DNA from: Leucoraja erinacea
Taxonomy: Eukaryota
NCBI RefSeq assembly: GCF_028641065.1
Contig: NC_073398.1
Span: 7,998,001 to 8,062,000, forward strand
Length of the DNA: 64,000 nucleotides
Direction of reading: 5' to 3'
Shown here: piece after piece, positions 4,861 to 61,400 of the stretch
How the letters are laid out: each line of letters starts with the position of its first letter
Position numbering within the stretch: the stretch's first letter is position 1
Translations under genes and position numbers: made by a program
Notes under the pieces: model-generated
Databases searched by the model: none
Told to the model about the DNA's origin: nothing
Seen by the model: only the letters and a program-made list of their open reading frames with translations

Positions 4861-5896
4861 TAATTATTTTAAATTAACTTTTATCTTTTCAAGATGTCTG
4901 TGGCTATTTTAAATATTTAAAAGCAGTTGCAAAGTCCTTGGCAGCAATAAATTGCCAACCAGCTATCAGGATGTTCCAGGGCAAAGTCAGAATAGCTACT
5001 GGTCCACACCGGATGATTACTCAGGATTTGCTAAACAGAGCACATTACAGCATAGACTCTTCGACCCCACAATGTCGTCGCTGAACATGATGCCAAGTTC
5101 AACTCATCTCCTTTGCCCACATGCAATCCACATCTGTCTATTCTCTCTATATACTTGCATCCATACAAAAGCCACTGGCGTGTCTGTCTCCACCACATTC
5201 CCTCTGCAGCATATACCAGGAACCCACAACTCTAAAATAAAAAATTGCCTCTCATCTCCTTTAAACTTTTCCCTTTCAACTTCACATAAGGGTTTTGGCA
5301 TGAAGCAAAGAATTCGATCCACACAGCCGCATATGGTTATTGCGGCTGTCAAAACAGCATTGAGGTGGTGTACCTTGAGCCCAACTACTTTTTATTTCCT
5401 TCTATAGATTAGGGAGTAGCAGCAACAGTAATGGGTCCAAAAATTAAATCCACAAAAGTAAGGGGTATACCTTGGGCTGATTCAGTATCCATTTTCAAAA
5501 AGTGTACAAAATGCATGCCGAATAGGGAACTGTAATCTCTGTCACTGGCATCACTTGTAACTGGCCAATTTTGGATGGATACAGAAGCCAGAATGGATGT
5601 ACAACGGATGGTACCCACACTCACCAACCAACCAGTTGTAAATGAAACCGCTCACATTACAAAGATGATGCTGCAGCCATTTGTCTGCAGATAAAGCACC
5701 ATACTCATATTGAAACCACCATTCATGTTTAGTGTATGCTCAATGGGAGTAATTCAGGTTGGCTGAATCCAAGTTCATTGAGTTCTCTAGATCAGAATTT
5801 CATTAACAGCTGTTATTTTATTTAGCCACTGATGTGAACACCACTTGCAAGCTGACATTTATTAGCCATCATTAATTGCTCTCCGGATTGAATAAA

Positions 5897-6102
5897 AACA
5901 AAGTTCTGGAGGAACTTAGCAGGTCAGGCAGCATCTTTGGAGAAAACGGACTGGCGATGTTTCGGGTCGAGAGCTTTTCTCTGAAGGGTCCTGACCTGAA
6001 ATGTCACCAATCCATTACCTTCACGGGAGTTGCCTGACCCGCTGAATTCCACCTGCACTGTGTTTTGTTTGAGATTCCAGCATCTGCAGTTCCACACGTC
6101 TA
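5897..6102. mobile_element. Head-to-head pLTR pair
   Basis: Minus copy (...gatgtttcgggtcgag) joined to a plus copy (ctgaagggtcctgacctgaaatgtc...cagcatctgcagttcc). Confidence 0.7.
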
Positions 6103-9147: not shown

Positions 9148-9346
9148 TTTTTCTTTTATGAAAGGAAAGTAATTTTGAAACTTCTGGCATGGAATGCCTT
9201 GTCATTACAGCAGATACGATGGGAAGATAAGAGAAACTGAGATGAATAAGATAGAATTATCAAGTAACATAGCACAGTCATGGTTGCCGAGGAACACAGT
9301 GCGCATGTAATGGATATTGATTGCTAGCCTGAGGTGCTGGTAGAGC

Positions 9347-11081
9347 ATGCTGAAACCTGGGAAAGCAGCAGGAATCGATGATGTACTGACGGAAATGATA
9401 CAGCAACTTGGACCTAAAGCAAAGACCTGGTTCCTAGCAATGCTGAACTCATGCATGGCACAGAAAACAACCCCACCTGTATGGAGAAAGGCCAAGACTG
9501 TCGCAATTCCAAAACCTGGAAAGGACCCATCATCCCCAAAGAGCTACAGACCCATTTCCCTCCTCTGCATCACCTACAAGCTCTACGAGAGGTTACTACT
9601 CCAACGCCTTATGCCACTTATAGACTCCAAGCTTACTAAAGATCAAGCTGGCATCCGACCTGGCCGCTCCTGTGCCGGGCAGCTACTGAACGTCACCCAA
9701 CACATTGAGGTCAGTTTTGAGTGCAAACTCATCGCCGGAGCAGCTTTCATAGATCTCACCGCTGCCTACGACACTGTCCAGCACCGCACCATGATCAGGA
9801 AACTTTTTGACATGACTGTTGACCTCGACCTGTGCCAAGTCATCAAAAGCCTTCTCAACAACAGGCGCTTCTTCGTTCAACTAAACGACAAGAAGAGCAA
9901 ATGGAAAACACAAAAGAATGGCCTACCACAAGGCAGCGTACTGGCCCCCCTCCTCTTCAACATCTACACCAACGACCAACCACTTCCCCCACAATGCCGC
10001 CGCTTCATCTATGCTGATGATCTCTGCATCACCACCCAACAGGAGAACTTCCAGAAGATCGAGTCTGTCCTGGAAAGTGCCCTCCAAGAGATGACAACCT
10101 ACTACAATAACAGCCACCTGAAACCCAACCCATCAAAAACCCAACTATGCAGCTTCCATCTTAAAAATCGAGATGCAGGAAAACAACTGAGCGTCTCATG
10201 GGATGGCCGCAAACTCTCCAACCACCTCCACCCCGTGTACCTCGGAGTCACACTCGACAGGACACTCTCTTTCAAAACCCACCTTCAGAACACCAAAGCC
10301 AAGGTCAACACTCGCAACAACATCCTGCGCAAACTGGTAAACTCAAAGTGGGGCGCTGATCCACCAACCATCCGTGCAACTGCCCTAGCCCTGTGCTTCT
10401 CCACAGCTGAATACGCGTGCTCAAGCTGGAGCCGCTCCCACCACACCAAACTGGTTGACACAGCCCTCAACGACACCTGCCGCATTATCACGGGATGCAT
10501 AAAGACAACGCCAGGCCCGTGCCTCTACGCCCTAGCTGGTATTGCCCCCCCCCCCCCCCCCATATCAGACGATCCATCGTCGCCCAAGACGAGCGGAGAG
10601 CACAGGAGACCGATACCAGGCACCCCCTGCACGGACACACAGCACCTCCACCCCGACTGAAATCTAGAGCCAGTTTCTTGCAGACAGTCCCACCTCTCCA
10701 GACAACCAAAGAAACAGCAAGGACCAACATCTGGAAAGATGATTGGAACCAGCTCAACATACGAGCCCACGACTGGATGGAGAGAGGAATCATTCCAACT
10801 GAATGCCTCGCCAGCTGGCACGACCTCGCATGGCCAACCTGGAAGACCCTCAACAGATTACGAGTGGAGCAGGGGAGGTGCAAAGCACTTATGAAAGCAT
10901 GGAACTACCAGGCAGAAGACACATGCAGCTGTGGAGCAGTACAGACAATGTCCCACCTACTGGAGTGTGACGACGCCCCCCAGTGCAGCCCCCAGGACCT
11001 GGCTGAACCGACCCGACCAGCTGTGACCTGCGCCAGATACTGGCAGAACGACATCTGAGATTGCAACGGACTCGAAGAAGA
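9347..11081 (+). mobile_element. 5'-truncated non-LTR retrotransposon, Vingi/Ingi-like (RT plus C-terminal Cys/His motif)
   Basis: ORF 9347-10660 has YRPISLL, PQGSVLAP and YADD motifs. It continues after one frameshift in a 17-C run (10545-10561) into ORF 10495-11058, ending in CSCG...QTMSHLLEC. No RNase H is evident; short gaagaaga 3' tail. Clade assignment is from motif recognition only. Confidence 0.85.
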
Positions 11082-21483: not shown

Positions 21484-22874
21484 CCGGTTAATTTTCCACA
21501 GATACTAAACGAAATTGAAGGTCAAAAAAATGACTCATTTTCAAACTGCAGAGAAAAGCTATTAAAGCTGCAAAATGGCCTCAGGTTTGGAAATGATATA
21601 TAGCACAAATAAACTGTTTAGGACAGGAACAGGCCTTTCAGCCCGTATTGTCAATGTTGAACACAATATCAGGTTAAACTAATCTCTGCTTGCATGTGAT
21701 CCATATCAATCCATTCCCCACATATCTATTTGCCTATCTTGAAACAAGTCACACAAGACGAGGGAATAGCATGTTACTCATATGCTTTGGAGAACTGCCG
21801 TGTCATGCTGATGTAGCAAAATTGACATCTTGCCAGTTTCTGTCAATTCGAGTCTCAATAATTCCTCTTGACAAATTTCCATTCAAACAGGAGCAGTTTC
21901 AATCCATTGTGTAATTCTTAATTTAAAATGTACGGATTGAAAAATATTAAAACATTCAACCTCATGCACAGAAAGTTTTAGAAATGTGTGATGATATTGC
22001 TGCAAAGAACACTGCCACTCCAAACACAGAATATGAATTATCTGCTGCTATACAAGAAGTCACCAAAAATTAAGACATTGGATTGGTGTATAACTTTAGC
22101 AAAGGTTTATAATTGGTTCATGGCTAATAAACAATAAAACAAACTTTCAGGGTCCCGACTTGAAACGTCATTCCATGTTCTCCCAAATGCTGCCTGGCCT
22201 GCTGAGTTACTCCAGTACTTTGTGTTTTTTTTTTTTTTTTTTAAAACTTAAGCAATGACTGGTCGAGCTGTGTATATTATATCCATCTCTGCCAATGAAT
22301 AATGTAGGACTATAGGTTTTGACTATAACAGAAAGAAGCTGCTGTTATGTCATGGGAAAGGTTAGTGATAAGGTAGCGACAAATTCTATTATGGCTAATT
22401 AAAGCCAAATATGTAAATCAAATGCTTGCAAAAATTCAGTTCCCAAAACAAAGATGTACACTGGAAACGGTTTTAATATTCCAACAGAATGTCACAGACA
22501 TTGTATCAGTACTCAATTCATTGGATTAAAACATCTGTAATAATTTAAAAGATTTGCCCTTATTAAATCAAAATGAAGTGCCCCCAAAATTCAAGGAAAA
22601 AATCAATTCTAGAAAATGCTCCTAAGATAAGCAACTCTTACAGCCCTTCCTTGGAAACAGTTTTTTCCTCTTGATGCAGGCCAAAATCTCTAATGAATCT
22701 TCTCCTTGTAACACAATGACTTAATTGCATCATTAAATCACCATCAGTCTTGCTATTTTAAAGGTGAACAAGCACATTTTAAGTTTTGAGAGTTGCAAAG
22801 ACTTAGCGAAACCATGCAAACGGCACCTTCAAATACATTGACATGCATCTGAAGTACTATTCAAAACCTGCCTC

Positions 22875-23705
22875 GAGTCGGAGTATAGAAGAGAGATCGA
22901 CCGACTGACCAAATGGTGCCAGCACAATAACCTGGCCCTCAACACCAGCAAAACCAAGGAACTGATTGTGGACTTTGGAAGGAGTAGGAGGGGGACCCAT
23001 AGCCCCGTTTATATGGTTGAAAGGGTCAAGAACTTCAAATTCCTTGGCGTGAACATCTCTGAAGATCTTTCCTGGTCCAAGAACACTAATGCAATCATAA
23101 AGAAAGCTCATCAGCGCCTCTACTTCCTGAGAAGATTACGGAGAGTCGGCATGTCAAGGAGGACTCTCTCTAACCTCTACAGGTGCACAGTAGAGAGCAT
23201 GCTGACCGGTTGCATCGTGGCTTGGTTCGGCAACTTGAGCGCTCAGGAACAGAAAAGACTACAAAAAGTAGTAAACACCGCCCAGTCCATCATCGGCTCT
23301 GACCTCCCTACCATCGAGGGGATCTATCGATCTATCAAAAAGATTGGCAGCATGATCAAGGACCCACACCATCCTGGCCACGCACTCATCTCCCCGCTCC
23401 CTTCAGGTAGAAGGTACAGGAGCCTGAAGACTGCAACGTCCAGGTTCAGAAACAGCTTCTTCCCCAGAGCCATCAGGCTATTGAACTCAACTCAAACAAA
23501 ACTCTGAACATTAATAGCCCATTATCTGTTTATTTGCACTTTCTCTGTTTTATTTATTCATGTGTGTATATATGTATACAATGGTATATGGGACACACTG
23601 ATCTGTTTCGTATTCATGCCTTCTATAATTCTGTTGTGCTGATGCAAAGCAAGAATTTCATTGTCCTATCTGGGACACATGTCAATAAACTCTCTTGAAT
23701 CTTGA
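22875..23705 (+). mobile_element. Rex1/Babar-like LINE, 5'-truncated
   Basis: WCQHNNLALNTSKTKELIVDF...FKFLGVNISEDLSW...HQRLYFLRRL...RFRNSFFPRAIRLLN, then a 3' UTR ending caataaactctcttgaatcttga. Confidence 0.85.
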
Positions 23706-31864: not shown

Positions 31865-33029
31865 CTGAAAAAAAGAGCAAAAAATTATTAGGGCAAAATG
31901 AAAATCACCATAAATTCACGGAAAATTCTGAATGTTGAACAAATGCAATTGTTATGATTAACTGCAGAATGATTGCAGCTTTAAATTCCACTCAACCATG
32001 CTTCAAAAAAAATCGCTTCAGATAAACTATCTGATGTGAATAAACTGTTTATTAAACACTTGATGCCAATTCACATCTCCAGTTACCTCCCACATTCAAA
32101 AGATGTGCCGATTTGTAGGTTAATTGGCTTCAGTAAAATTATCCAGTATATGTAGGATAGAACTAGTGTGAACAGGTGATCGCTGGTTGGCGCTGAGTCG
32201 GTGGGCTGAAGAGGCTGTGCCTCTAAAACAAAAATCTATAGATAAAGTGCAGGAACAAACGTGTAAGGGCTGCAGCAAGGTAGGGACTGGAAGACTGGCA
32301 CTATAATCTTAGCTTAGGAGAGGTCTCTTCAGTTATCTAATCACAGCATCTCATGGTAGGTTCTTTCAAGCTTTTGTATTGTCTGGCCAACCAGACATGC
32401 AAGAAGAGAGAATGATCCATCATCGACCCGAAACGTCGCCTATTTCCTTCGCTCCATAGATGCTGCCTCACCCGCAGAGTTTCTCCAGCATTTTTGTCTA
32501 CCTTCATTATGTTGGATGCTTTCCCAACATAGCATGAAGTGCAGGTGGAGTAGGTGGGGAAGACTGGTTTGTGTGATGGTGGACTGGGATGCAGCCACAA
32601 CCAAAGATCGTAGAGGGACAAGATAGACCACTCCTTCGAAATTCAATGGGCTGACGTGTAGTACGCAACGGAACGTCACGGCCGCCATTTGTTACAGCGA
32701 CACTCGACTTCCGGTATTCCACCCGCTGTGATTCAAAGCAAAGATTATAGAGCTCCGCTATAATCTTTGATCCAAAGCAAAGATCCTCAAGTATCTTGTA
32801 GCGGGAACAGACCCCTCCTTTGTGTAGTTTCCCTTGCATTGTATTGCTTTAACACACACTGCAAAAAATTAAATTTAACGTATATATATTTAATATATTT
32901 ATATGAATGTGTGTCTGTGTGTGAGAGGCTTAGAATAATAGTTTATTCTCATGATCAGAAGCTACTTTGATTTAAATAATCGCTATTAATTTATTTGTCT
33001 TGTAAGATGATATACATAAACCATAAAGG

Positions 33030-33255
33030 CAATTATATATATAATTATATAGTAATAATATATATGCATATATATATTTACACACACATATATATACACA
33101 TACAATATACACACACATATATATACACATACATACATGCACATACAAATGCACACATACAAATGGATACATTTATATGCATACATACACACATATTATA
33201 TATGACATACATGATATACACACATTTTGTTACATATATATTTATACATATGATT
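33030..33255. repeat. (TA)/(CA)-rich low-complexity microsatellite
   Basis: Imperfect TA/CATA/CACA runs. Confidence 0.85.
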
Positions 33256-33261
33256 AACATG

Positions 33262-34645
33262 TAGAGGAACCAACGAGAGAGCAGGCTATTTTAGACTGGG
33301 TATTGAGGAGGAGGGTTAGTTAGCAATCTGTTGTCTGCCCCCTTGGGCAAGAGTGACCATAATATGGTTGAGTTCTTCATTAGGCAGGCAGTGACTAGTG
33401 GGGTACCGCAAGGCTCAGTGCTGGGACCCCACCTATTTACAATATATATTAATGATCTGGATGAGGGAATTGAAGGCAATATCTCCAAGTTTGCGGATGA
33501 CACTAAGCTGGGGGACAGTGTTAGCTGTGAGGAGGATGCTAGGAGACTGCAAGGTGACTTGGATAGGCTGGGTGAGTGGGCAAATGTTTGGCAGATGCAG
33601 TATAATGTGGATAAATGTGAGGTTATCCATTTTGGTGGCAAAAACAGGAAAGCAGACTATTATCTAAATGGCGGCCGACTAGGAAAAGGGGAGATGCAGC
33701 GAGACCTGGGTGTCATGGTACACCAGTCATTGAAAGTAGGCATGCAGGTGCAGCAGGCAGTGAAGAAAGCGAATGGTATGTTAGCTTTCATAGCGAAAGG
33801 ATTTGAGTATAGGAGCAGGGAGTTTCTACTGCAGTTGTACAGGGTCTTGGTGAGACCACACCTGGAGTATTGCGTACAGTTTTGGTCTCCAAATCTGAGG
33901 AAGGACATTATTGCCATAGAGGGAGTGCAGAGAAGGTTCACCAGACTGATTCCTGGGATGTCAGGACTGTCTTATGAAGAAAGACTGGATACACTTGGTT
34001 TATACTCTCTAGAATTTAGGAGATTGAGAGGGGATCTTATAGAAACTTACAAAATTCTTAAGGGGTTGGACAGACTAGATGCAGGAAGATTGCTCCCGAT
34101 GTTGGGGAAGTCCAGGACAAGGGGTCACAGCTTAAGGATAAGGGGGAAATCCTTTAAAACCGAGATGAGAAGAACCTTTTTCACACAGAGAGTGGTGAAT
34201 CTCTGGAACTCTCTGCCGCAGAGGGTAGTCGAGGCCAGTTCATTGGCTATATTTAAGAGGGAGTTAGATGTGGCCCTTGTGGCTAAGGGGATCAGAGGGT
34301 ATGGAGAGAAGGCAGGTACGGGATACTGAGTTGGATGGTCAGCCATGATCATATTGAATGGCGGTGCAGGCTCGAAGGGACGAATGGCCTACTCCTGCAC
34401 CTAATTTCTATGTTTCTATTATTTTCAACGATCAATAGATTTACGATCAGTTCCTGTGGATTGGAGGATAGCTAATGCTATCCCACTTTTCAAGAAAGGA
34501 GCGAGAGAGAAAATGGGGAATTACAGACCAGTTAGCCTGACTTCTTTGGTGGTGTGAAAGATGCTGGAGTCAATTATTAAAGATGTAATAATGGGGCATT
34601 TGGATAGCAGTAAAAGCATTAGTCCAAGTCAACATGGATTTATGA
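33262..34645 (+). mobile_element. CR1/HER1 LINE pieces; young 3' copy at 33385-34418
   Basis: ORF 33331-34329 has SGVPQGSVLGP, KFADDTKL, RPHLEYCVQFWSP and FFTQRVVNLWNSLP, then a 3' UTR ending ttctatgtttctat. Flanked by other CR1 ORF2 segments (EEPTREQAILD; VPVDWRIAN...NYRPVSLTS...QHGF). Confidence 0.92.
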
Positions 34646-34944
34646 TTTTACAATGCATTTAAGCCTCTCCCATTTTTATGAGATTAATTCCTGGAATATG
34701 CAGGAAGTTTATTGTACCCTAGTGCTACTTGCCTGAACAATGGATGATATATCACTTAAATGCAATTGTTTTCAGTTGTGTGGAGAGACCTGTATATTGA
34801 AAATGTGTTTTGCCTCTAATATGTCAATTTACCTTAAATGTAGAAGAGCTTATTAAAATCTTCTTACAAAGACAATTAAGTATTTTCTATCTATCCTTTT
34901 TTGGACCCAAGGCATAGCAGAGCTGCCAACTCTCACGAAGAGGT

Positions 34945-35280
34945 AAGGGAGGGAGAGATGGAAGGGTGGGAGGGAGGGGAAGGGGAGGAGATCGCGAAGA
35001 GAGGGGGGAGAGAGAGAGAGAGAAGATCGAGAGAAGAGAGGGGAGCGAGAGATCGAGAGGAGGGGAGAGAGCGATCGAGAGAAGAGAGGGAGAAGGGGGG
35101 AGAGGGAGAAGGGGGAGAGGGAGAAGGGGAAAGGGGGGGGACAGGGCGAAGGGGGACAGGGACAAGGGGGAGAGGGAGAAGGGGGAGGGAGAAGGGGAAA
35201 GGGGGGGACAGGGAGAAGGGGGGAGGGAGAAGGGGACAGGGACAAGGGGGAGAGGGAGAAGGGGGAGAGGGAGAGTGGAA
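34945..35280. repeat. Purine-rich (GA/GGGA) minisatellite
   Basis: Almost exclusively G/A on the plus strand, with gggagaagggggaga-type units. Confidence 0.9.
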
Positions 35281-37425
35281 CGATAGCACATTATAACGCG
35301 CAGCCGTCCCATTCCGACCAAAGATTATAGAGCAGAGCTCCACTAGTATCTTTGATTGCGGCCGCCGCCACCGAACCCCCCGACCCACCATTGCACCCAA
35401 AGATGATAGAGCAGAGTTATATAATATTTGATTGCACCCTTCTTCACGGCGGGCTTGTGATGTCTTGTATGTATGTGAGTGTTGTTTGCTATGTCCCTAT
35501 GTTCGAGGAATATAATGGGTAACAGCCGCCCATTCTCGGACTCGAAAAATCTCCTGGTCACTGGACCTGATGTGCCCGCGTGCCATATTGTGCAGACTAA
35601 TCCCTTACAAAACAAAACCAAAAACGTACAGAAGTGTTAAAATTGTCTTTATTATTATGGTGAGTAAAGAACTATTAAAAATAAGTCTAAGAACTTTCTA
35701 ATGTACCGACTAATGTTTCCCAATGGCCGTTGATGGGAGAACAGAAAATACCATTTTCACGACAGAATATCGACTGAAAATAATAAAAATATTTTCTCAC
35801 CTTTCTTTTTTATTGGGGAACCTAAAGAATGACAGGTTGGGTCGTTTAGATTTACGATTAGAATACTTGATAGCGGAGCAGTGAGATGAAGATTTAGCTG
35901 AGGACGCCATTACAGCCCAATAAATGCTTAACAATATGGCGTCGACGGTCACACACGTCATACTACGCGTTTTTCGAGGAGTGGTCTATCTTGTCCCTCT
36001 ACGATCTTTGGCCACAACTCTGCTATTTCTTGAGTCATTGAGCAGCTACCACAGCAAGCTGTAATGCATTCCAATAGGATGCTTTTTACTGTGCATCTGT
36101 ACAAGTTATTAAGAGTAGTTGGAGATGCTGAACTACAGCAGAGGCATTAGGTGCGCTTTCAAGGCTTCAATGTGGTTCATCCAGGACAAATTGTTAGTGA
36201 TATATACACCTAGAAACTTGAAGCTCTCAACCATCTCTATTTCAGCACCACTGAGATGTATGTACACCTTTTGCTGACATTGATGACGAACCTTTGTTTT
36301 GCAGGGAGAGGGAGAAGAGGAGGGGGAGGTTGTTGTCTTGACACCATGTTACTAATCTCTCCATCTCCTTCCTGTACTAGACCTGGACATTGTGCAAGAA
36401 CCAACACACTACAGGGGTGTCAGCCGCAAACTTCTATGTATGTTGGAGCAGAATTTAGCTGCATAATTGAGAGTGCATCGAAAATATAGCAAGGGGCTGA
36501 AAATGCGGCGCATCAGTATTGAGACGAGAGGAGTAGGTATAAATTGAGATACGGTTTAGTTTTGATGTGTGCAAACTTTAATGTTTCTGCCAAATATATT
36601 CAAGGGAAACCATAGATATATTGAGATGCGCTGCTCAGTTTACAGGAATGCTACGATACAAATGGTCATCATCCAAGGACAATTTGCATGGTCAGTATAA
36701 CATTCTTTTGAGAGCATATTCATAGTACAGATATGATAAATGTATTCCTGCTGGCAAGATGATCCAGAAGAATAGGATAAATTATTTAAATTAAATGCAT
36801 GTTATACAACCACAGTTATGCAAGCACTAGACAAAATCTGCAATCAGCTTCAATAAAAACCATTGACCTAACGGGTAAAACAGATTATTTATTTAGAAAA
36901 GCATCATGTGATCAAAAGCAAAGTTAGAAAATAGTGGAGCTGAAAATATTAATCGTCCCAAGTACTATGGGAAAAGGCGGACGATAGTATTAGTTTTGCT
37001 GATTCAATTGTAAAATGATCAGAGAGTTGATCTAAGGAAATTCAATACAGTCTCTTCTGCCTACCTGATCAATTTCAGCTACTACTATCTATTTTAGGGG
37101 AGTTTTCTCTGCTCCCTGAATAGCTATCAAGCAGCTATTCATTATTCGGTTTTAACAGTTTATTAAATGGTTTACATAAGTATGATTGATCAAGGTTATG
37201 GGAGTCCTGTAAGTTTACAAGTATGTATAAATTGGTAAAATCACTACCTACACAATTGGGAAGCAGCAACACAATAGATACAATTGCAATCACATACGAT
37301 GGATTCCACTGTCCTTGAGGCACCATTTCAGGGTTTAAATGGTTTTGCTTCAAATGTTTCAAAGCGAGCTGCTCAGTTGCAATTGTTGGTAATCCACAAG
37401 TAGCAAGTATTGATGTACAGCATAA

Positions 37426-38570
37426 GTTCAAGTTCAAGTGAGTTTATTGTCATGTGTCCCTGATAGGACAATGAAATTCTTGCTTTGCTTCAGCACAGAA
37501 CATAGTAGGCATTTACTACAAAACAGATCAGTGTGTCCATATACCATAATATAAATATATACGCAGATGAATAAATAAAGTGATAAAGTGCAAATAACAA
37601 ATAATGGGTTATTAATAATCAGAGTTTTGTCCGAGCCAGGTTTAATAGCCTGATGGCTGTGGGGAAGTACCTATTCCTGAACCTGGTTGTTGCAGTCTTC
37701 AGGCTCCTGTACCTTCTACCTGAAGGTAGCAGGGAGATGAGTGTGTGGCCAGGATGGTGTAGGTCTTTGATGATACTGCCAGCCTTTTTGAGGTAGCGAC
37801 TGTAATAAATCCCCTCGATGGAAGGAAGGTCAGAGCCGATGATGGATTAGGCAGTGTTTACTACATTTTGTAATCTTTTCCTCTCCAGTTGCCGAACCAA
37901 GCCACAATGCAACCGGCCAGCATGCTCTCTACTGTGCACCTGTAGAAGTTAGAGAGTCCTCCTTGACAAACCGGCTCTCCGTAATCTTCTCAGGAAGTAG
38001 AGGCGCTGATGAACTTTCTTGATAATTGCATTAGTGTTCTTGGACCAGGAAAGATCTTCAGAGATGTTCACGCCCAGGAATTTGAAGTTCTTGACCCTTT
38101 CAACCATATAAACGGGGCTATGGGTCCCCCTCCTACTCCTTCCAAAGTCCACAATCAGTTACTTGGTTTTGCTGGTGTTGAGGGCCAGGTTATTGCACTG
38201 GCACCATATGGACAGTTGCTCGATCTCTCTTCTATACTCTGACTCATCCCATCAGTGATACGTCCCACAACAGTGGTGTCATCAGCGAACTTGATGATGG
38301 AGTTGGCACTGTGACTGGCTACGCAGTCATGAGTATAGAGTGAGTATAGCAGGGGGCTGAGCACGCAGCCTTGAGGTGCTCCCGTGCTGATTGTTATCGA
38401 GGCTGACACATTTCCACCAATACGAATAGACTGTGGTCTGTGAATGAGGAAGCGAGGATCCAATTGCAGAGGGATGCGCAGAGACCCAGTTCTGCGAGTT
38501 TGGTAACCAGCTTGGAGGGGATGATTGTGTTAAATGCCGAGCTGTAATCGATGAATAACAGACTGACATA
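37426..38570 (-). mobile_element. Rex1/Babar-like LINE, 5'-truncated
   Basis: [36 protein letters not shown] and KFADDTTVVGRI motifs with frameshifts; (aacttg)n tail at 37426-37438. Confidence 0.88.
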
Positions 38571-52806: not shown

Positions 52807-53101
52807 AGGGGCTGTCCCACTGTACGAGATAATTCAAGAGTTCCCCCGAGTTCCCCCTGATTTGAACTCGGATAATTATGGTAATAGCCGCTCGTAGGTA
52901 CTCGGGACTCTCGTGGACATCATGTTGAAAAATCTTCACGAGTCTTTCCCCGAGTACCTGCTGTTAGCGTTACGAACCGTTAAGAGACGTCCCTAGCTCC
53001 TACGTACCCGCTACGTACATTCTACGTGCTTACCACGAGTCTGATTTTTTTTTTAAACTCGGGAGAGCTCTTGAATTAGCTCTTACAGTGGGACCGCCCC
53101 T
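52807..53101. mobile_element. MITE with long TIRs (Harbinger-like termini), TA-flanked
   Basis: ~45-bp imperfect TIRs aggggctgtcccactgtacgagataattcaagagtt... / ...gctcttgaattagctcttacagtgggaccgcccct; the host Penelope sequence resumes after a duplicated TA. Confidence 0.8.
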
Positions 53102-53206
53102 TACCATTTTAACTCCCCTTCCCATTCCATCGATGACCGTTCGGTCCTGGGCCTCCTCCATTGCCAGAGCAAAGCCACATGCAAACCGGATGAACAGCAC
53201 CTCATA

Positions 53207-53953
53207 AGCGAGTTCGGTATTCCGACTGCGCATGCCCAGGTCATAGGTCACTAGCTATAAAACAGTCTTGGCAACGATGGTGCTGCATTGTGTGCAGGCT
53301 TGTGTTTCGGCTGTAGTCGGGGTTGGCTCTCCGTCGCAGTGTATGCTGTTGAGCTGTCCCCATCCCCCTCCCCGGTGTCCCGTCCCTGTCCGGGGCGGCC
53401 CTGGACTTGCAGCTGCTGGCTCCAGCTCAGCTCTGCCTATCCCGCCGGGTTGGCCGGCAGCCCTCCACCTCCACCCCCCTCATACACAGAGATCCTGCTG
53501 AAGATGGGCAGCCGCCGGCCCTGCTCGAAGACGGGCAACTCGGAGCCGCTGCTGCTGGAGTCGTCCTGGTTGGAGAGAGAGAGTCTGCAGACGGGCTCCT
53601 GCTGGCCAGGGCAGGCCGGGCGCCCGCTGGAGCTGCTGGCGGTGATAGTGGTGCTGGCGGCAGCAGCAACCTTCTCCCCCTTCCTTGCCCAGGGTCTGGG
53701 CCAGCTCTAACTCCAGGTCGGGGCTGAAGGTTGCCCGCAGCGCAGCAGTCGAGCGCCGGAGGAGGCCGAGCCCAGGCTGGTGCTGTGGCACAGGTGAGGC
53801 CGGGGCCCTCGCTCCTCCTCGGGGTTGTGGACGGAGTGGCAGCGGGTACCGTAGGGGCGGCCTGAGGCCATGGGCTAACTGGCACTTGCCGCTTCCGTGC
53901 ATTTTTGACAAATCCCATGATTCCTTGCATTTTTTCGGAATACCGAACTTGCT
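53207..53953. mobile_element. Non-autonomous TIR element carrying gene-derived cargo (Pack-type)
   Basis: 19-bp TIRs agcgagttcggtattccga / tcggaataccgaacttgct (1 mismatch); TA duplication at 53205-53206 and 53954-53955 within the host motif cacctcatattctgcttggg. Confidence 0.85.
53479..53890 (-). pseudogene. Captured, internally deleted ZFP36/tristetraprolin-family gene fragments
   Basis: Collinear minus-strand pieces in different frames: GKCQLAHGL (end of CCCH finger 1), PYGTRCHSVHNPEEER (end of finger 2), RPHLCHSTS, RSPSADSLS, NQDDSSSSGSELPVFEQGRRLPIFSRISV (C-terminal CNOT1-binding motif). Paralog not determined. Confidence 0.85.
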
Positions 53954-55584
53954 TATTCTGCTTGGGTATCTTTTAACCCAGTGGTATGAACATTGAATTC
54001 TCCAATTTTAGGTAACCTCTGACTACCTGAACTCACACCCATCTCTCCCCTCCAGATTGGCCCCCTGGCCCACACCGTATACTTCACTATCCACAACTCT
54101 TCAAAACCCGTATCACACCCATTTTTCTTATAACTGACTTTTGTTCTAACCATCCAACTGTGTCAACCTATTACCAGCCACACTTTGTCCTGCCTTTTCC
54201 AAACACCCCCCACACCCACCCAGTGAAGAAGGGTCTCAACCCAAAACATCACCTATCCATGTTCTCCAGAGATGCTGCTTGACCCCCTGAGTTACTCCAG
54301 CACTTTGCATCTTTTTTATTTGTTAACTAGCATCTGCATTTACTTGTTCCAACAAAATTGGCAGATTTCCTTTATTGAAGGCTTATGACAACACAGCAGA
54401 TTCATTCATTTTATAAATCATTTTTAATATTAACTTTCCATTCCAGTTTTGTACTTATCCTGGTACTTTGCCTAAGATTTTCCTAATGATCACAAAAAGA
54501 GTCAAACATTATCTCTGGATACCTGTCAAGTAGCTTAACCAGTGCTTGTTTTGCACACCAACATATTCCTTTGTGTACAGGTCAATTAAAAATCAAGCGA
54601 CATCAACTATTTTTCCCATCAATATTCCCAACATTGAGGTAACTTACACCATGCGTTTAGACATGGAGTTAAGTTATTAGAAGTCAGTAGAAAGGCCCCC
54701 GATCCAAACGTCACCTGTCCTCCTTCTCCATAAATACTGCCTGACTCACCAAGTTACTCCAGTATTTTGTATCTTTTTTTGTAAACCAACGTTTTCACAA
54801 TTCCTTTTCTCATTGTTATAATTAATTCACACACTATCCATTAACTAATCATGATTAACAAACATACATGTCACATTGTTGGGAAACAAAATGTTTAACA
54901 TTCAGAAAAGCATTAAGCTTAACCATTATGCTACCATTCCTCAAATGAAGTAGGATATTCCTCATGTAGTATAAAGTGGTAATTTACAATAGTTATCCTA
55001 TTGGTATGTTTTTGGGCATGGAAATAAACCAAAGCACCTGGAAGGAGCCCAACAGGTACAGATACAACATGCAAAATCCCCCCAGACAAGTATCCTGGCA
55101 GCATCAAAAACTATGTCTACATTGTATCTTTATCCAAGCCATTAAGTTAGACTGAAAATAGTTGAGGATCCATCACAGATCGTGGTGGTCCTAATCATAG
55201 CTCGCTATGTTTTTCAACATTTTTTCCCTTTGTTCACCAATCCTCGATACATGCCAAGATATTACTCCAAATATCATGAGCTACTTTGTGCCATGACCCT
55301 CAATATGGCACCTTATTGATTGGCTTTTGGAAATCTGATTACGCTACATCTACCGTTTTCCCCTTTATCTATTGTACTCACTACATTAATGAAAACACAA
55401 ATGCCACGATTTCCCCATTAGGTAACCATGGTGAATTTCCTAATGATACGCTGATAATGGATTCCAACATCTGCCCAACGATAAATGTTGAGATAACCAA
55501 CCCTCATTTCTCGAATTGGAGACTTGCATATGTAATTTTCTAGTCAACCAAGTTTTTTCCAGAACTCAAGCTAACAATCAACCT

Positions 55585-57394: not shown

Positions 57395-57609
57395 ACTCGA
57401 TCGCGAGTTTGAGTCTTCAATGTAGGTTTTTCTTGCAGAATAGGAGAGAATAGGGAGGGTTAGGCTGGGATCCTTCTCTGCGAGATGATCTTAGTGCGGG
57501 AGACAAGTGTAGGAGAGGTGTACTGAGTGTGTGGGCAGAACTTTGGAAGTGATTGCCCACCATTCTCAAAAGCCGCTGTGTCTCCCTGTCCCTCCAACTC
57601 CAGAGGAAT

Positions 57610-58425
57610 CCGCTCCCCGATGGGCCGCTACGGCGATAAGTGGCAGTTCGCCCACAGCCCGAGCTGCGCCCCCTCATCCGCAACCCGGGTTCCTCTGGAG
57701 TTGGAGCGGGGCTGGGCTAGAGTTGTTGCTGGCTGTGAGTCTCTGGGATCTCCGTGCTTGCAGTGGGCCTGGGGGTCGGTGTCCCGATGAGGGGGCGCAG
57801 CTCGGGCTGTGGGCGAACTGCCACTTGTCGCTGTAGCGGCGCATCGGGGAGCGGCTTCTGGTGGTCCTGACGTCTCTCAGCTCCTGTCCAGGGGGACGGC
57901 TGGAGACGTCAGGACCAACAGGAACCCGCTCCCCGATGCGCCGCTACGGCGCCAAGTAGCAGTTCCCCCCACAGCCCGAGCTGCGCCCCCTCATCCGCAA
58001 CCTGGGTTCCTCTGGAGTTGGAGCGGGGCACTTCGAGAGTTGTTGCTGGCTGTGAGTCTCTGGGATCTCCGTGCTTGCAGTGGGCCTGGGGGTCGGTGTC
58101 CCGATGAGGGGGCGCAGCTCGGGCTGTGGGCGAACTGCCACTTGTCGCTGTAGCGGCCCGTCGGGGAGCGGCTTCTGGTGGTCCTGATGTCTCTCAGCTC
58201 CTGTCCAGGGGGACGGCCGGAGACGTCAGGACCAACAGGAACCCGCTCCCCGATGCGCCGCTACAGCGACAAGTGGCAGTTCGCCCACACCCCGAGCTGC
58301 GCCCCCTCATCCGCAACCCGGGTTCCTCTGGAGTTGGAGCGGGGCTGGGCTAGAGTTGCTGCTGGCTGTGAGTCTATGGGATCTCCGTGCTTGCAGTCGG
58401 TGTCCCGTTGGTCCTGACGTCTCCG
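57610..58425. repeat. ~317-bp GC-rich tandem repeat (about 2.5 copies) with internal inverted repeats
   Basis: Units start at 57610, 57926 and 58243. Unit 1 has 69-bp arms (57610-57678 / 57786-57854) and a 14-bp stem (57863-57876 / 57903-57916). Confidence 0.9.
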
Positions 58426-61400
58426 GTCACCCCCTAGAATGGAGCTGAGACTGGGAACTGCACCGCCCTTACCCCCTCCCTCTGCAACTGCAAACAACCC
58501 CACAGTTCCCAGTCTCATTCTGTACAGGGGGGTTGCCACACGTACAGCCCGAGCCATCAGCTTTTCCCTACGGGGCCAGCGGAGAGCGTCTTTTCTGGAA
58601 TTGGAACGGGGCTGGGCTCTGCTGGCTGTGGGTCTCTGGAATCTCCGTGCTTGCATCCCCCTGGGGGTCGGTTTACACCAAGCTTGACCGGTGACTGGCA
58701 CTTTCAACGTGAAGATAGCCTTGACAAAGCCAGCTAGAGCCGGATGCAATGCGCGGGGAGCTGGAGAGGGGAGGGAAGAGGTCACACACATGGCCGGGAA
58801 GCAGAGGGGTGTAGGTGGGGTGAAACTGAAGGGAGCGACAATCTACTGCTGCCTGCACTCTGAGTTAAAAAGTTCCTACGCAAGACTCACGATACACTGA
58901 TTTGAGTTACCGTGGGAACTTTTTAAGCTACGGGCAAAGCAGATTGTCAATTATTAACCCTATGGTTATACCCTCACCTTCTAAATTATGAATGGGGGTT
59001 TAGTTATAACATTGTACCAAAACCGACCGGATTCCGCTGTCAACTCGCGGGCCGCAAGAGTGAATTTTTTCAATTTGATCAAGGACTGAAAAAATTAGAC
59101 ATTCGGATTGGACCGTTATTATTTAATACATTTCTTACATGTACCTACTTCTGCTCTCTAGTTCAGCTAGTTAAGTGGAGTCAGTCCTTGTGATTTAACC
59201 TTCCAGACTAACCCATCATACAAAAGTTCTTGCTAAGTCCAAAGAGATAATGTATGAATATGACTAGCTATTCTGTCCAGTCATTTATTTATTCACTCAC
59301 TCAATTGATTCTACATCCTCATCCATTCGCCAAATTCCTCTCAAACATTTTGTTGCGTGCCGACCAGTCAGCGGAAAAACAATGCATGATTACAATCGCT
59401 CCATTTACGGTGTATAGATATATGATAAGGGAGTAACGTTTAGTGCAAGGTAAAGCCAGCAAGTCTGATCAAGGATAGTCCGAGGGTCATCAAAGTGGTA
59501 GATGGTACTTCAGCACTGCTCTCTGGTTATGGTAGGATGATTCAGTTGCCTGAAGAGCCAGACAGCAGATCAAGTTGTGTGCGGCAAACTAACTGTACTG
59601 CTGACAATACAACACTCAATATCTCAAGAGCTCCAATTTTCTACTGCACAGCTTACTTTCAGGTGTATATCATTTGATACTTCAAACATTTGGTTTGAAT
59701 AATTGGAACAGAGAGCTCGGAGATGAGAATGGACTAATTATAGAGGTTTTCCCGAAATGCTAACCATCAATCAGCTTTAATTACCCTTCCTAAAAGTATG
59801 TTTTGCAGACTTCAGGTCTATTCTGTCAATGTTTTAATCACAAAATTACAGTAAACAATCTCTGCCTGCATATTGATATTTTACAATAGTTTGCTGCAGC
59901 TACAAGGTGTAATAAATGCAAATATTTGAAAGGTTCTATGAAATGAATCAATTTTCAACGGTAATGCATTGCGTTGATGTTTAAGAAATTTCAGATTTGG
60001 TATTTATAGTCTTAATTTTAAGTATGGTGCTGCCCCCTGAAAGATGGATTATCCTCTGAACAAAAAATATTTCTCAAATATTTTGCTATGGGCACTGGTA
60101 CGGCCAGTTACTCGTTGATCCAGATATGATTATATTCCATATTCAAAGGCTCTCGAATATTTCAAATGAATGTGCAAGGCCCTAACGTTATTATCTCCCA
60201 TATACAGCATGTGGTTTTTCTTCATTTATTCCGAGGTTTTAATTTGTTGGTTGTGAAGGTTTAATATTCACTAGTTATTGAGGAACAGTTCCCAACTAAA
60301 ACACACAATAGACAAACCAGGGATAAACAAAAATGGCACAGCTTATGAACCTAATAAAATTGAAGCAAAAGTAATCTTTACAATTTAAAAATGTACGGTT
60401 ATCACCCTTTTTACATCAAACTTCCCTTCATCTTGCAAACTGGTTCAGAAGCATTTGCCAAAGATATCAACATAATATTTTGTTTAAAAAAAAACTGTAT
60501 TAAGTATACCAGGAGGCTAAACCTTGCCCTCATTGGTCTGGCACCTCCTTTAATCCAGACTAAATTACTAGAGTGCACTCGAAATCTCTCCCCAGGTGTG
60601 TGTCCCCCCCAAATTGTGGTGCCTAGGCCAGGTGAGGCAGTCTCATCTGGACTTCCATGGCCGAACTTCTAATCAGTGGATCGAATTTGCCCCCCCTGCG
60701 ACTGGGGCTCTGGAACGCCAACCCAGTCGGAACTGGCAGATCCGCTCCTTTTGTCCACTTCCTAGACTATCTTTGTGGGCCAGTATCTCAGCCTCCCGGC
60801 AGCAAGGATGGACTGTACTATTCGACTCCTCCCTGAGACAGTGACCTCTGCTGGTCCAATAAAGCAGATAGTCCATCAAGACTCTTGAATCAAAGGTGCC
60901 GAAAATTGGTCGGTATTATGTAATCTTGCAGACACATGAACTAAACAAACAAATTTCCACATTTGCTGTACTGTTATTTTTCTGGTGACAGTACAAGTGG
61001 ATCACAATTGTGTATTACCCTAGTAGACAAAAAACCAAAAGTGAAAATGCTCCAGCATACTGGAACTCCAGCGCTGACATTCCTACTTCTACCCATTCCC
61101 GTCGGTAGATGATACAGAAGCATGAAAGCACCACCACTGCTTCTTTTCCTGATATCAGGCTTCTGAACGGTCCTTTCACGAGCAAGGAAGACCTACTACA
61201 TTGCAGATATTGGACTTTTTCCTCTGAAACTGTTACACTACAATTATGAGAACTATATACGGCATCAAAAAAACTCAGTTATTCAAACTTTCAGTACCTC
61301 TCATGTTTTTCCATTATATATAGTCACTAATAAAAGCATCGAGGCAGAACATTTGATTTGATTCTAAAAAAAAAAAATCAAATTTGATCACGGAATTAAA

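Follow-up and report, generated by a model that had tools for sequence, protein, structure and literature searches.

We found that three short units, R1, R2 and R3, nested in a 3,409-bp non-coding transposable element of the skate Leucoraja erinacea, are probably scars of P-type transposon excision, a reading to which we assign a probability of roughly 0.65. The element, hereafter the host, lies within a 64,000-nucleotide stretch of contig NC_073398.1 (NCBI RefSeq assembly GCF_028641065.1, forward-strand positions 7,998,001 to 8,062,000), which we call the window and in whose coordinates all positions are given. The lesion type is known; the setting, nested in a non-autonomous element of a batoid, is new. 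Each unit joins the tips of two terminal inverted repeats (TIRs) between two copies of an 8-bp target, the target site duplication (TSD), as follows.

32731–32738, unstranded: left target copy of R1, matching 32770–32777 at 7/8 positions
32739–32769, plus strand: R1, 31 bp, a left arm of 14–15 nt joined without filler to a right arm of 16–17 nt, 137 bp from the left end of the host
32770–32777, unstranded: right target copy of R1, from flank comparison
35311–35318, unstranded: left target copy of R2, matching 35355–35362 at 6/8 positions and present once in empty-site contigs
35319–35354, plus strand: R2, 36 bp, a 19-nt left arm and a 17-nt right arm, which the right arm of R1 resembles at 14/17 positions
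35355–35362, unstranded: right target copy of R2, in which the variant 35361 G>A lifts the match to 7/8
35363–35389, unstranded: host spacer separating the R2 and R3 targets; a 24-nt homologue, compared by eye, links both single targets in double-empty contigs
35390–35397, unstranded: left target copy of R3, with an 8/8 match
35398–35430, plus strand: R3, 33 bp, a left arm of 19 nt, a middle of 3 nt and a right arm of 11 nt; the variant 35426 A>C brings back the TIR end
35431–35438, unstranded: right target copy of R3, from flank comparison

Re-reading the window showed that the sequences, coordinates and flanks reported for the three units in a preliminary description of this DNA are all exact. 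R1 lies between ATTCAAAG and ATCCAAAG (7/8 identical) and R2 between ATTCCGAC and ATTGCGGC (6/8), while R3 has ATTGCACC on both sides (8/8); with flank lengths of 5–12 tried, the best-matching length was 8 for each. This three-unit feature is real and non-random. The pattern CAAAGAT-N15–30-ATCTTTG has 2 exact matches where 0.03 are expected, and 0/100 shuffles reached 2. When each 7-mer may carry one mismatch, the window has 12 pairs spaced 25–45 bp apart, and the three of these whose flanks agree at 6/8 or better are R1, R2 and R3; in 40 simulated windows, pairs with 6/8 flanks averaged 0.075 per window, and flanks of 7/8 or 8/8 never occurred. A further CAAAGAT at 32778, with ATCTTG 21 bp on, was considered as a fourth remnant and rejected, as it has no flanking repeat; the 21 bp concerned (32778–32798), directly after the right target copy of R1, have the look of a degenerate unit.

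Other copies of the host show R2 and R3 to be true insertions with an 8-bp duplication. We aligned public contigs from four runs (X1, X15, X19 and X20) to positions 35275–36100 at 80% likeness, a stretch that holds R2 and R3 and has R1 outside it; summed depth in these alignments is not copy number, and copies less than 80% alike are left out. Two contigs in X1 and one in X15 contain a joint from 35317 to 35362, with sides of 36–37 letters, that skips exactly 44 bp, that is, the 36 bp of R2 plus one 8-bp target copy. Among the eight joints listed, two further ones in X15 are without R2 and have a GCC run that is slightly shorter, and 3/8 are unrelated or ambiguous. Two joints, one per run, lack both R2 and R3, and a third such double-empty contig occurs in X1; in these contigs (two in X1, one in X15) the 23–26 intervening letters are host spacer accompanied by one copy of each target, with a likeness to the host spacer of 20/24 and 21/24, by eye, in two of them. 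Five contigs of X20 reach 35431, in the R3 target, without R3. The anticipated empty-site copies of the host, with a single target copy, thus exist for R2 and R3, in rare contigs.

The same contigs bear on the proposal that the units are built-in subterminal repeats of the host, generated by local duplication of TIR-like motifs, and that the empty forms are slippage losses between the 8-bp repeats. R2 and R3 do occur in almost all aligned depth, 79 bp apart and alike, R1 lies close to the left host end, and hairpins between direct repeats can undergo precise deletion. Each unit, however, has a separate 8-bp duplication that differs in sequence from the others, and its arms differ from the host TIR at 5/17 positions. 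Apart from target and remnant, the 79-bp units show no relation to each other, and R3 was rejected as a tandem copy of an R2-bearing 79-bp unit. Moreover, a distinct, shorter spacer is common to the double-empty contigs, as expected of an older lineage, and these contigs would need two precise losses. We regard built-in repeats as very improbable.

The right part of the host is present in 20 of the 21 runs listed (10 studies, four coded organisms), and its right 735 bp are found in 1,242 contigs of X1, possibly the run from which the window derives, and 1,709 of X15, a run with a different organism label and from a different study. Summed depth over R2 and R3 reaches tens to hundreds of thousands in these two runs, and the form bearing both makes up nearly all of the aligned depth; they therefore arose in the ancestry of the host family and were amplified with it. 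R2 and R3 are features of the repeat family, not private to the window locus. What had been described as excision events in this host is borne out to the extent that both R2 and R3 were inserted, but they are family-wide and not events at this locus. Minority alleles are those expected for decayed insertions: 35361 G>A, which brings the R2 TSD to 7/8, makes up 2.7% of the depth in X1 and 5.6% in X15 and is carried by the sole contig there in X20, and 35426 A>C, which restores a perfect TIR end in R3, makes up 30% in X1, 17% in X15 and 22% in X20. X19 and X20 (organisms C and D) carry R2 and R3 as well, with 2 and 37 contigs aligned; their summed depth is very low, so that they perhaps represent traces of DNA from the same species or a close relative and give no dating of the scars. 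Other host copies have 12–13 bp insertions and alternative sequence at 35452, 35461–35465, 35540 and 35611, and this variability across 35452–35611 indicates several host subfamilies. One X19 contig (record 17) follows the plus strand of the host (35275–35734) and then the reverse complement of 35954–35983, an inverted or nested copy.

We then compared the arms of the units. Read from the left, R2 and R3 have in common a 19-nt arm (one mismatch), of which R1 has the first 14–15 nt; from the right-hand side, a 17-nt arm is common to R1 and R2, and R3 retains 11 nt of it after a 3-base middle that matches neither arm. The left and right 17-mers are alike at 15/17 positions, and each is alike to the host TIR at only 12/17, so that, judged by these tips, the visiting element is a sister family with slightly unequal ends and not the host itself. 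All three junctions differ, which is the heterogeneity anticipated for excision and the opposite of the uniform junctions named beforehand as speaking against it. R1 corresponds to R2 minus one 5-bp GAGCA unit, plus 3 substitutions; if the right end of the visitor continues with CTC, both can be joins over a 3-nt GAG microhomology. The units had been described as two abutting TIR ends and nothing else, which is right in that all have head-to-head arms, but the palindromes are imperfect (folding z of −5.3 for R1, −2.7 for R2 and −0.7 for R3) and R3 carries its 3-base middle. All three have the same orientation, and all of their targets start with ATT.

This anatomy is close to what the Drosophila P element leaves behind. 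P transposase makes a 17-nt staggered cut, one strand being cleaved 17 nt inside each TIR, and produces 8-bp TSDs (PMC7776569). Donor sites sequenced in Rad51-deficient flies keep both 8-bp copies with at most 17 nt of each TIR, often 30–32 bp in all; some scars reach about 35 bp where 2 nt have been inserted, and far shorter forms occur as well (PMC2895639). By analogy, an element with CAAAGAT ends would have inserted into ancestral host copies and duplicated 8 bp, as is seen for R2 and R3 and presumed for R1. A transposase would next have excised it by a long staggered cut within each TIR, leaving each flank with a single-stranded TIR tail of about 17–19 nt, and end-joining of these tails, blunt, over short microhomology or with small filler, would have produced units of 31, 36 and 33 bp with the target copies intact on either side. 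The scarred host lineage kept transposing, as is seen for R2 and R3, so that these are now present in nearly all aligned copies and empty sites in rare older ones, with the scars as inert passengers by default. R1 and the 17-nt right arms directly fit the retention of at most 17 nt per TIR, the right arms being 17, 17 and 11 nt long.

A mobile miniature inverted-repeat transposable element (MITE), a single unit of about 36 bp that inserted three times and of which R1 and R3 later lost a few bases, would accommodate the GAGCA difference between R1 and R2, the common 19-nt left arm of R2 and R3, the uniform orientation and the ATT targets. The empty sites of R2 and R3 fit it equally well, as does the failure to find a parent, and MADE1, a mariner MITE of 80 bp, consists of two TIRs. 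We nevertheless consider a mobile unit unlikely, since all three junctions differ; the sizes are 31, 36 and 33 bp. P transposase requires binding sites inside the TIRs, for which a unit of 31–36 bp is too small, and P-type cleavage 17 nt in from both ends would leave such a unit without duplex. Among the 19 of 292 loose ends listed, none has the exact boundary of R2 or R3 beside foreign flank, a weak point in that a 36-bp match may be too short; the depth accompanies the host flanks, the share of aligned contigs diverging onward being 0.01 and 0 in two deep runs.

The lengths of the units also bear on an extreme form of internal deletion, in which an element of any superfamily with 8-bp TSDs was excised and sister-chromatid gap repair was aborted after copying the tips. 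This would permit arms longer than 17 nt, such as the 19 nt of R2 and R3, and would leave the superfamily free; in wild-type flies, P excision is most often repaired by synthesis that aborts and is then completed by end-joining (PMC2895639). Yet aborted repair predicts widely spread lengths, and the finding of all three units at 31–36 bp, with a 17-nt arm occurring twice, points to a fixed cut depth. We think this explanation distinctly unlikely.

Several observations weigh against P-type excision scars. The left arms of R2 and R3, each 19 nt long, have positions 18–19 in common, beyond a 17-nt tail; to find such an arm twice implies that the cut at that end lay deeper, that repair synthesis added a short stretch, that an identical 2-nt filler arose twice or that the units have a common origin. 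The claim that the P cleavage geometry is the same in a chondrichthyan must therefore be softened: the scar anatomy is like that of Drosophila P, with both TSDs and 11–19 nt per TIR, but the 19-nt arms exceed the 17-nt cut of P and make the geometry only approximately the same. The relation of R1 to R2 and the single orientation would also be expected of one mobile unit that underwent slippage. In cell assays, excision by zebrafish THAP9 gave larger flanking deletions and no neat scars (PMC10983969). A longer parent with the remnant ends was not found in the window or in viral and metagenome contigs, and no transposase was seen among the window frames examined. The empty forms amount to about 0.11% (X1) and 0.04% (X15) of the R2-bearing depth, and the short side of the double-empty joints is 21–22 letters; such joints can stem from other repeats.

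The uneven arms allow a bolder version, to which we give low odds, in which the transposase cuts at unequal depths, about 19 nt into one end and 17 nt into the other, and its scars were reused as subterminal binding sites, favouring the scarred lineage. Extra subterminal transposase sites would explain why scar-bearing copies make up more than 99% of the aligned depth, and on this view excision scars would supply subterminal repeats, which influence how well MITEs spread.

As neither the parent nor a P transposase was found, the P superfamily membership of host and visitor is putative and drawn from their ends and TSDs. Viral contigs gave no match to the 19-nt left arm, the host TIR or the palindromic pattern, and prokaryote genomes none to the host TIR, results of little weight from collections without animal genomes. 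In metagenome contigs the 19-nt arm had 7 matches, each rejected as chance, with no closing TIR and TSD and a host likeness confined to the motif. Two CAAAGAT...ATCTTTG pairs in the window (5660–5939 and 60459–60775) were rejected as parents, being without TSD or longer TIR likeness.

The 8-bp TSD of the P superfamily is present in the host (8/8) and in the remnants (7/8, 6/8 and 8/8), with a single target at the R2 and R3 empty sites. CA...TG ends are common to the remnants, Drosophila P and the zebrafish element Pdre2; the third base differs. A literature search for an end motif common to the superfamily found nothing relevant, and hAT ends can resemble P-type ends. A hAT-type footprint, though, retains no TIR at the donor site, whereas the skate units keep 11–19 nt of each TIR between intact TSDs. 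Indeed, hAT, Transib and MULE enzymes form a hairpin on the flanking DNA (PMC5499845), and TIR sequence should therefore not stay behind. Target preference is less informative: P, hobo and Hermes target motifs are similar (PMC2577343), and the R2 target resembles the P core, but the hobo and Hermes motifs are alike and only four targets are available. The ATT start of all targets was thus correctly seen, but it rests on three targets and the motif fails to separate P from hAT. The notion of P-family elements inserted into a P element likewise keeps its 8-bp TSDs and, with no parent bearing these ends found, takes its P identity from ends and TSDs.

The host itself, and the insertions that enlarge this copy, are laid out as follows.

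32594–32601, unstranded: left TSD of the host (GCCACAAC), 8/8 with 36011–36018
32602–32641, plus strand: left TIR of the host, 33 bp perfectly inverted and 39/40 with one gap, with weaker inverted likeness to about 90 bp
32602–36010, unstranded: the host, a 3,409-bp non-autonomous, non-coding TIR element; insertions of a long interspersed nuclear element (LINE) and of simple repeats enlarge this copy
33307–34329, plus strand: frame of a young LINE (a piece of reverse transcriptase) in the host, Pfam RVT_1 E 1.5e-11, separate from the scars
34945–35274, unstranded: GA-rich simple repeat in the host, from a repeat scan; an AT/AC simple repeat also lies within the host
35972–36010, minus strand: right TIR of the host, an inverted match to the left TIR
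36011–36018, unstranded: right TSD of the host (GCCACAAC), 8/8, perfect

The LINE piece has 340 open codons, is 96–97% identical to unnamed proteins, lies within an apparent older LINE fragment and looks like a recent insertion into this host copy; the closest named relatives of its protein are from Leucoraja erinacea (88–94%), Mobula (85%) and Hypanus (76%), which makes a skate or ray the most likely source. No transposase was recognized among the 7 of 38 long window frames scanned against Pfam, and the rest of the host interior has only short frames. An Rfam search gave just sub-threshold matches on the AT/AC simple repeat. Inverted likeness inside the host is imperfect out to about 90 bp, and besides the remnant arms there is no perfect inverted pair of 11–12 bp within it. 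One 10-bp inverted pair (35870–35879 and 32752–32761) lies 131 and 150 bp from the host ends, with one member inside the right arm of R1; it is possibly a transposase-binding motif, and the commoner allele at 35875 disrupts the pairing by one base. The right flank of the host (36043–36108) is multi-copy in the runs and resembles 37886–37951, 1.8 kb away (71%), so that the host inserted into an older repeat.

Elsewhere in the window, a 438-codon open frame at 9344–10660 (RVT_1 E 1.1e-37) belongs to another LINE, and a 221-codon frame at 22842–23507 with a Pfam ALKBH8_N match (E 2.9e-12) is probably the C-terminal part of a LINE protein. A GC-rich island at 53001–54007 (0.60) has long open frames on both strands, the single frame scanned there being without a Pfam match, and 57604–58397 is a GC-rich tandem repeat with a period of 317 bp, 2.5 copies and 93% matches.

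The long staggered cut is a signature of P chemistry, documented for the Drosophila enzyme. For vertebrate THAP9, excision has been shown, and the cut position was not found in the papers examined. Inherited scars such as those described here would provide a readout, from sequence alone, of P-type cut-and-paste in the germline of a cartilaginous fish, including the depth of the cut, and would also record how a vertebrate repairs long non-complementary overhangs. They call for caution in annotation too, as apparent subterminal repeats of a non-autonomous element may be nested scars. Neither this host family nor natural P-type scars in cartilaginous fish were found in the literature, searched without Repbase or Dfam, where the family may be catalogued.

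Among known systems, the host has an analogue in BuT5, a P-associated MITE that is non-coding, high-copy and flanked by 8-bp TSDs (PMC3698922); BuT5 is tied to an autonomous P element, whereas no partner was found for the skate host (PMC3698922 for BuT5). Footprints of hAT and MULE elements share TSDs of the 8-bp class with the skate units but, with the flank hairpinned, retain no TIR, and the hobo and Hermes target motifs are as close to the skate targets as the P motif. Zebrafish have mobile P-like elements, named Pdre, that produce 8-bp TSDs (PMC10983969, PMC7776569), and P activity in a vertebrate is therefore not new. Pdre and THAP9 are like the skate system in their 8-bp TSDs, in TIRs that start with CA and in the occurrence of copies with internal deletions (PMC10983969), and Pdre2 is unlike it in its 13-bp TIRs of other sequence and its larger deletions on excision (PMC10983969). 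The nearest match is with Drosophila P footprints, which likewise keep both target copies around head-to-head TIR tips, total about 30–36 bp and are joined via short microhomology, blunt joining or small insertions. The skate ends are CAA...TTG rather than CAT...ATG, their left and right tips differ at 2/17 positions and one arm reaches 19 nt; in contrast to the induced scars of flies, the skate units are natural and inherited, and have been amplified within another transposon.

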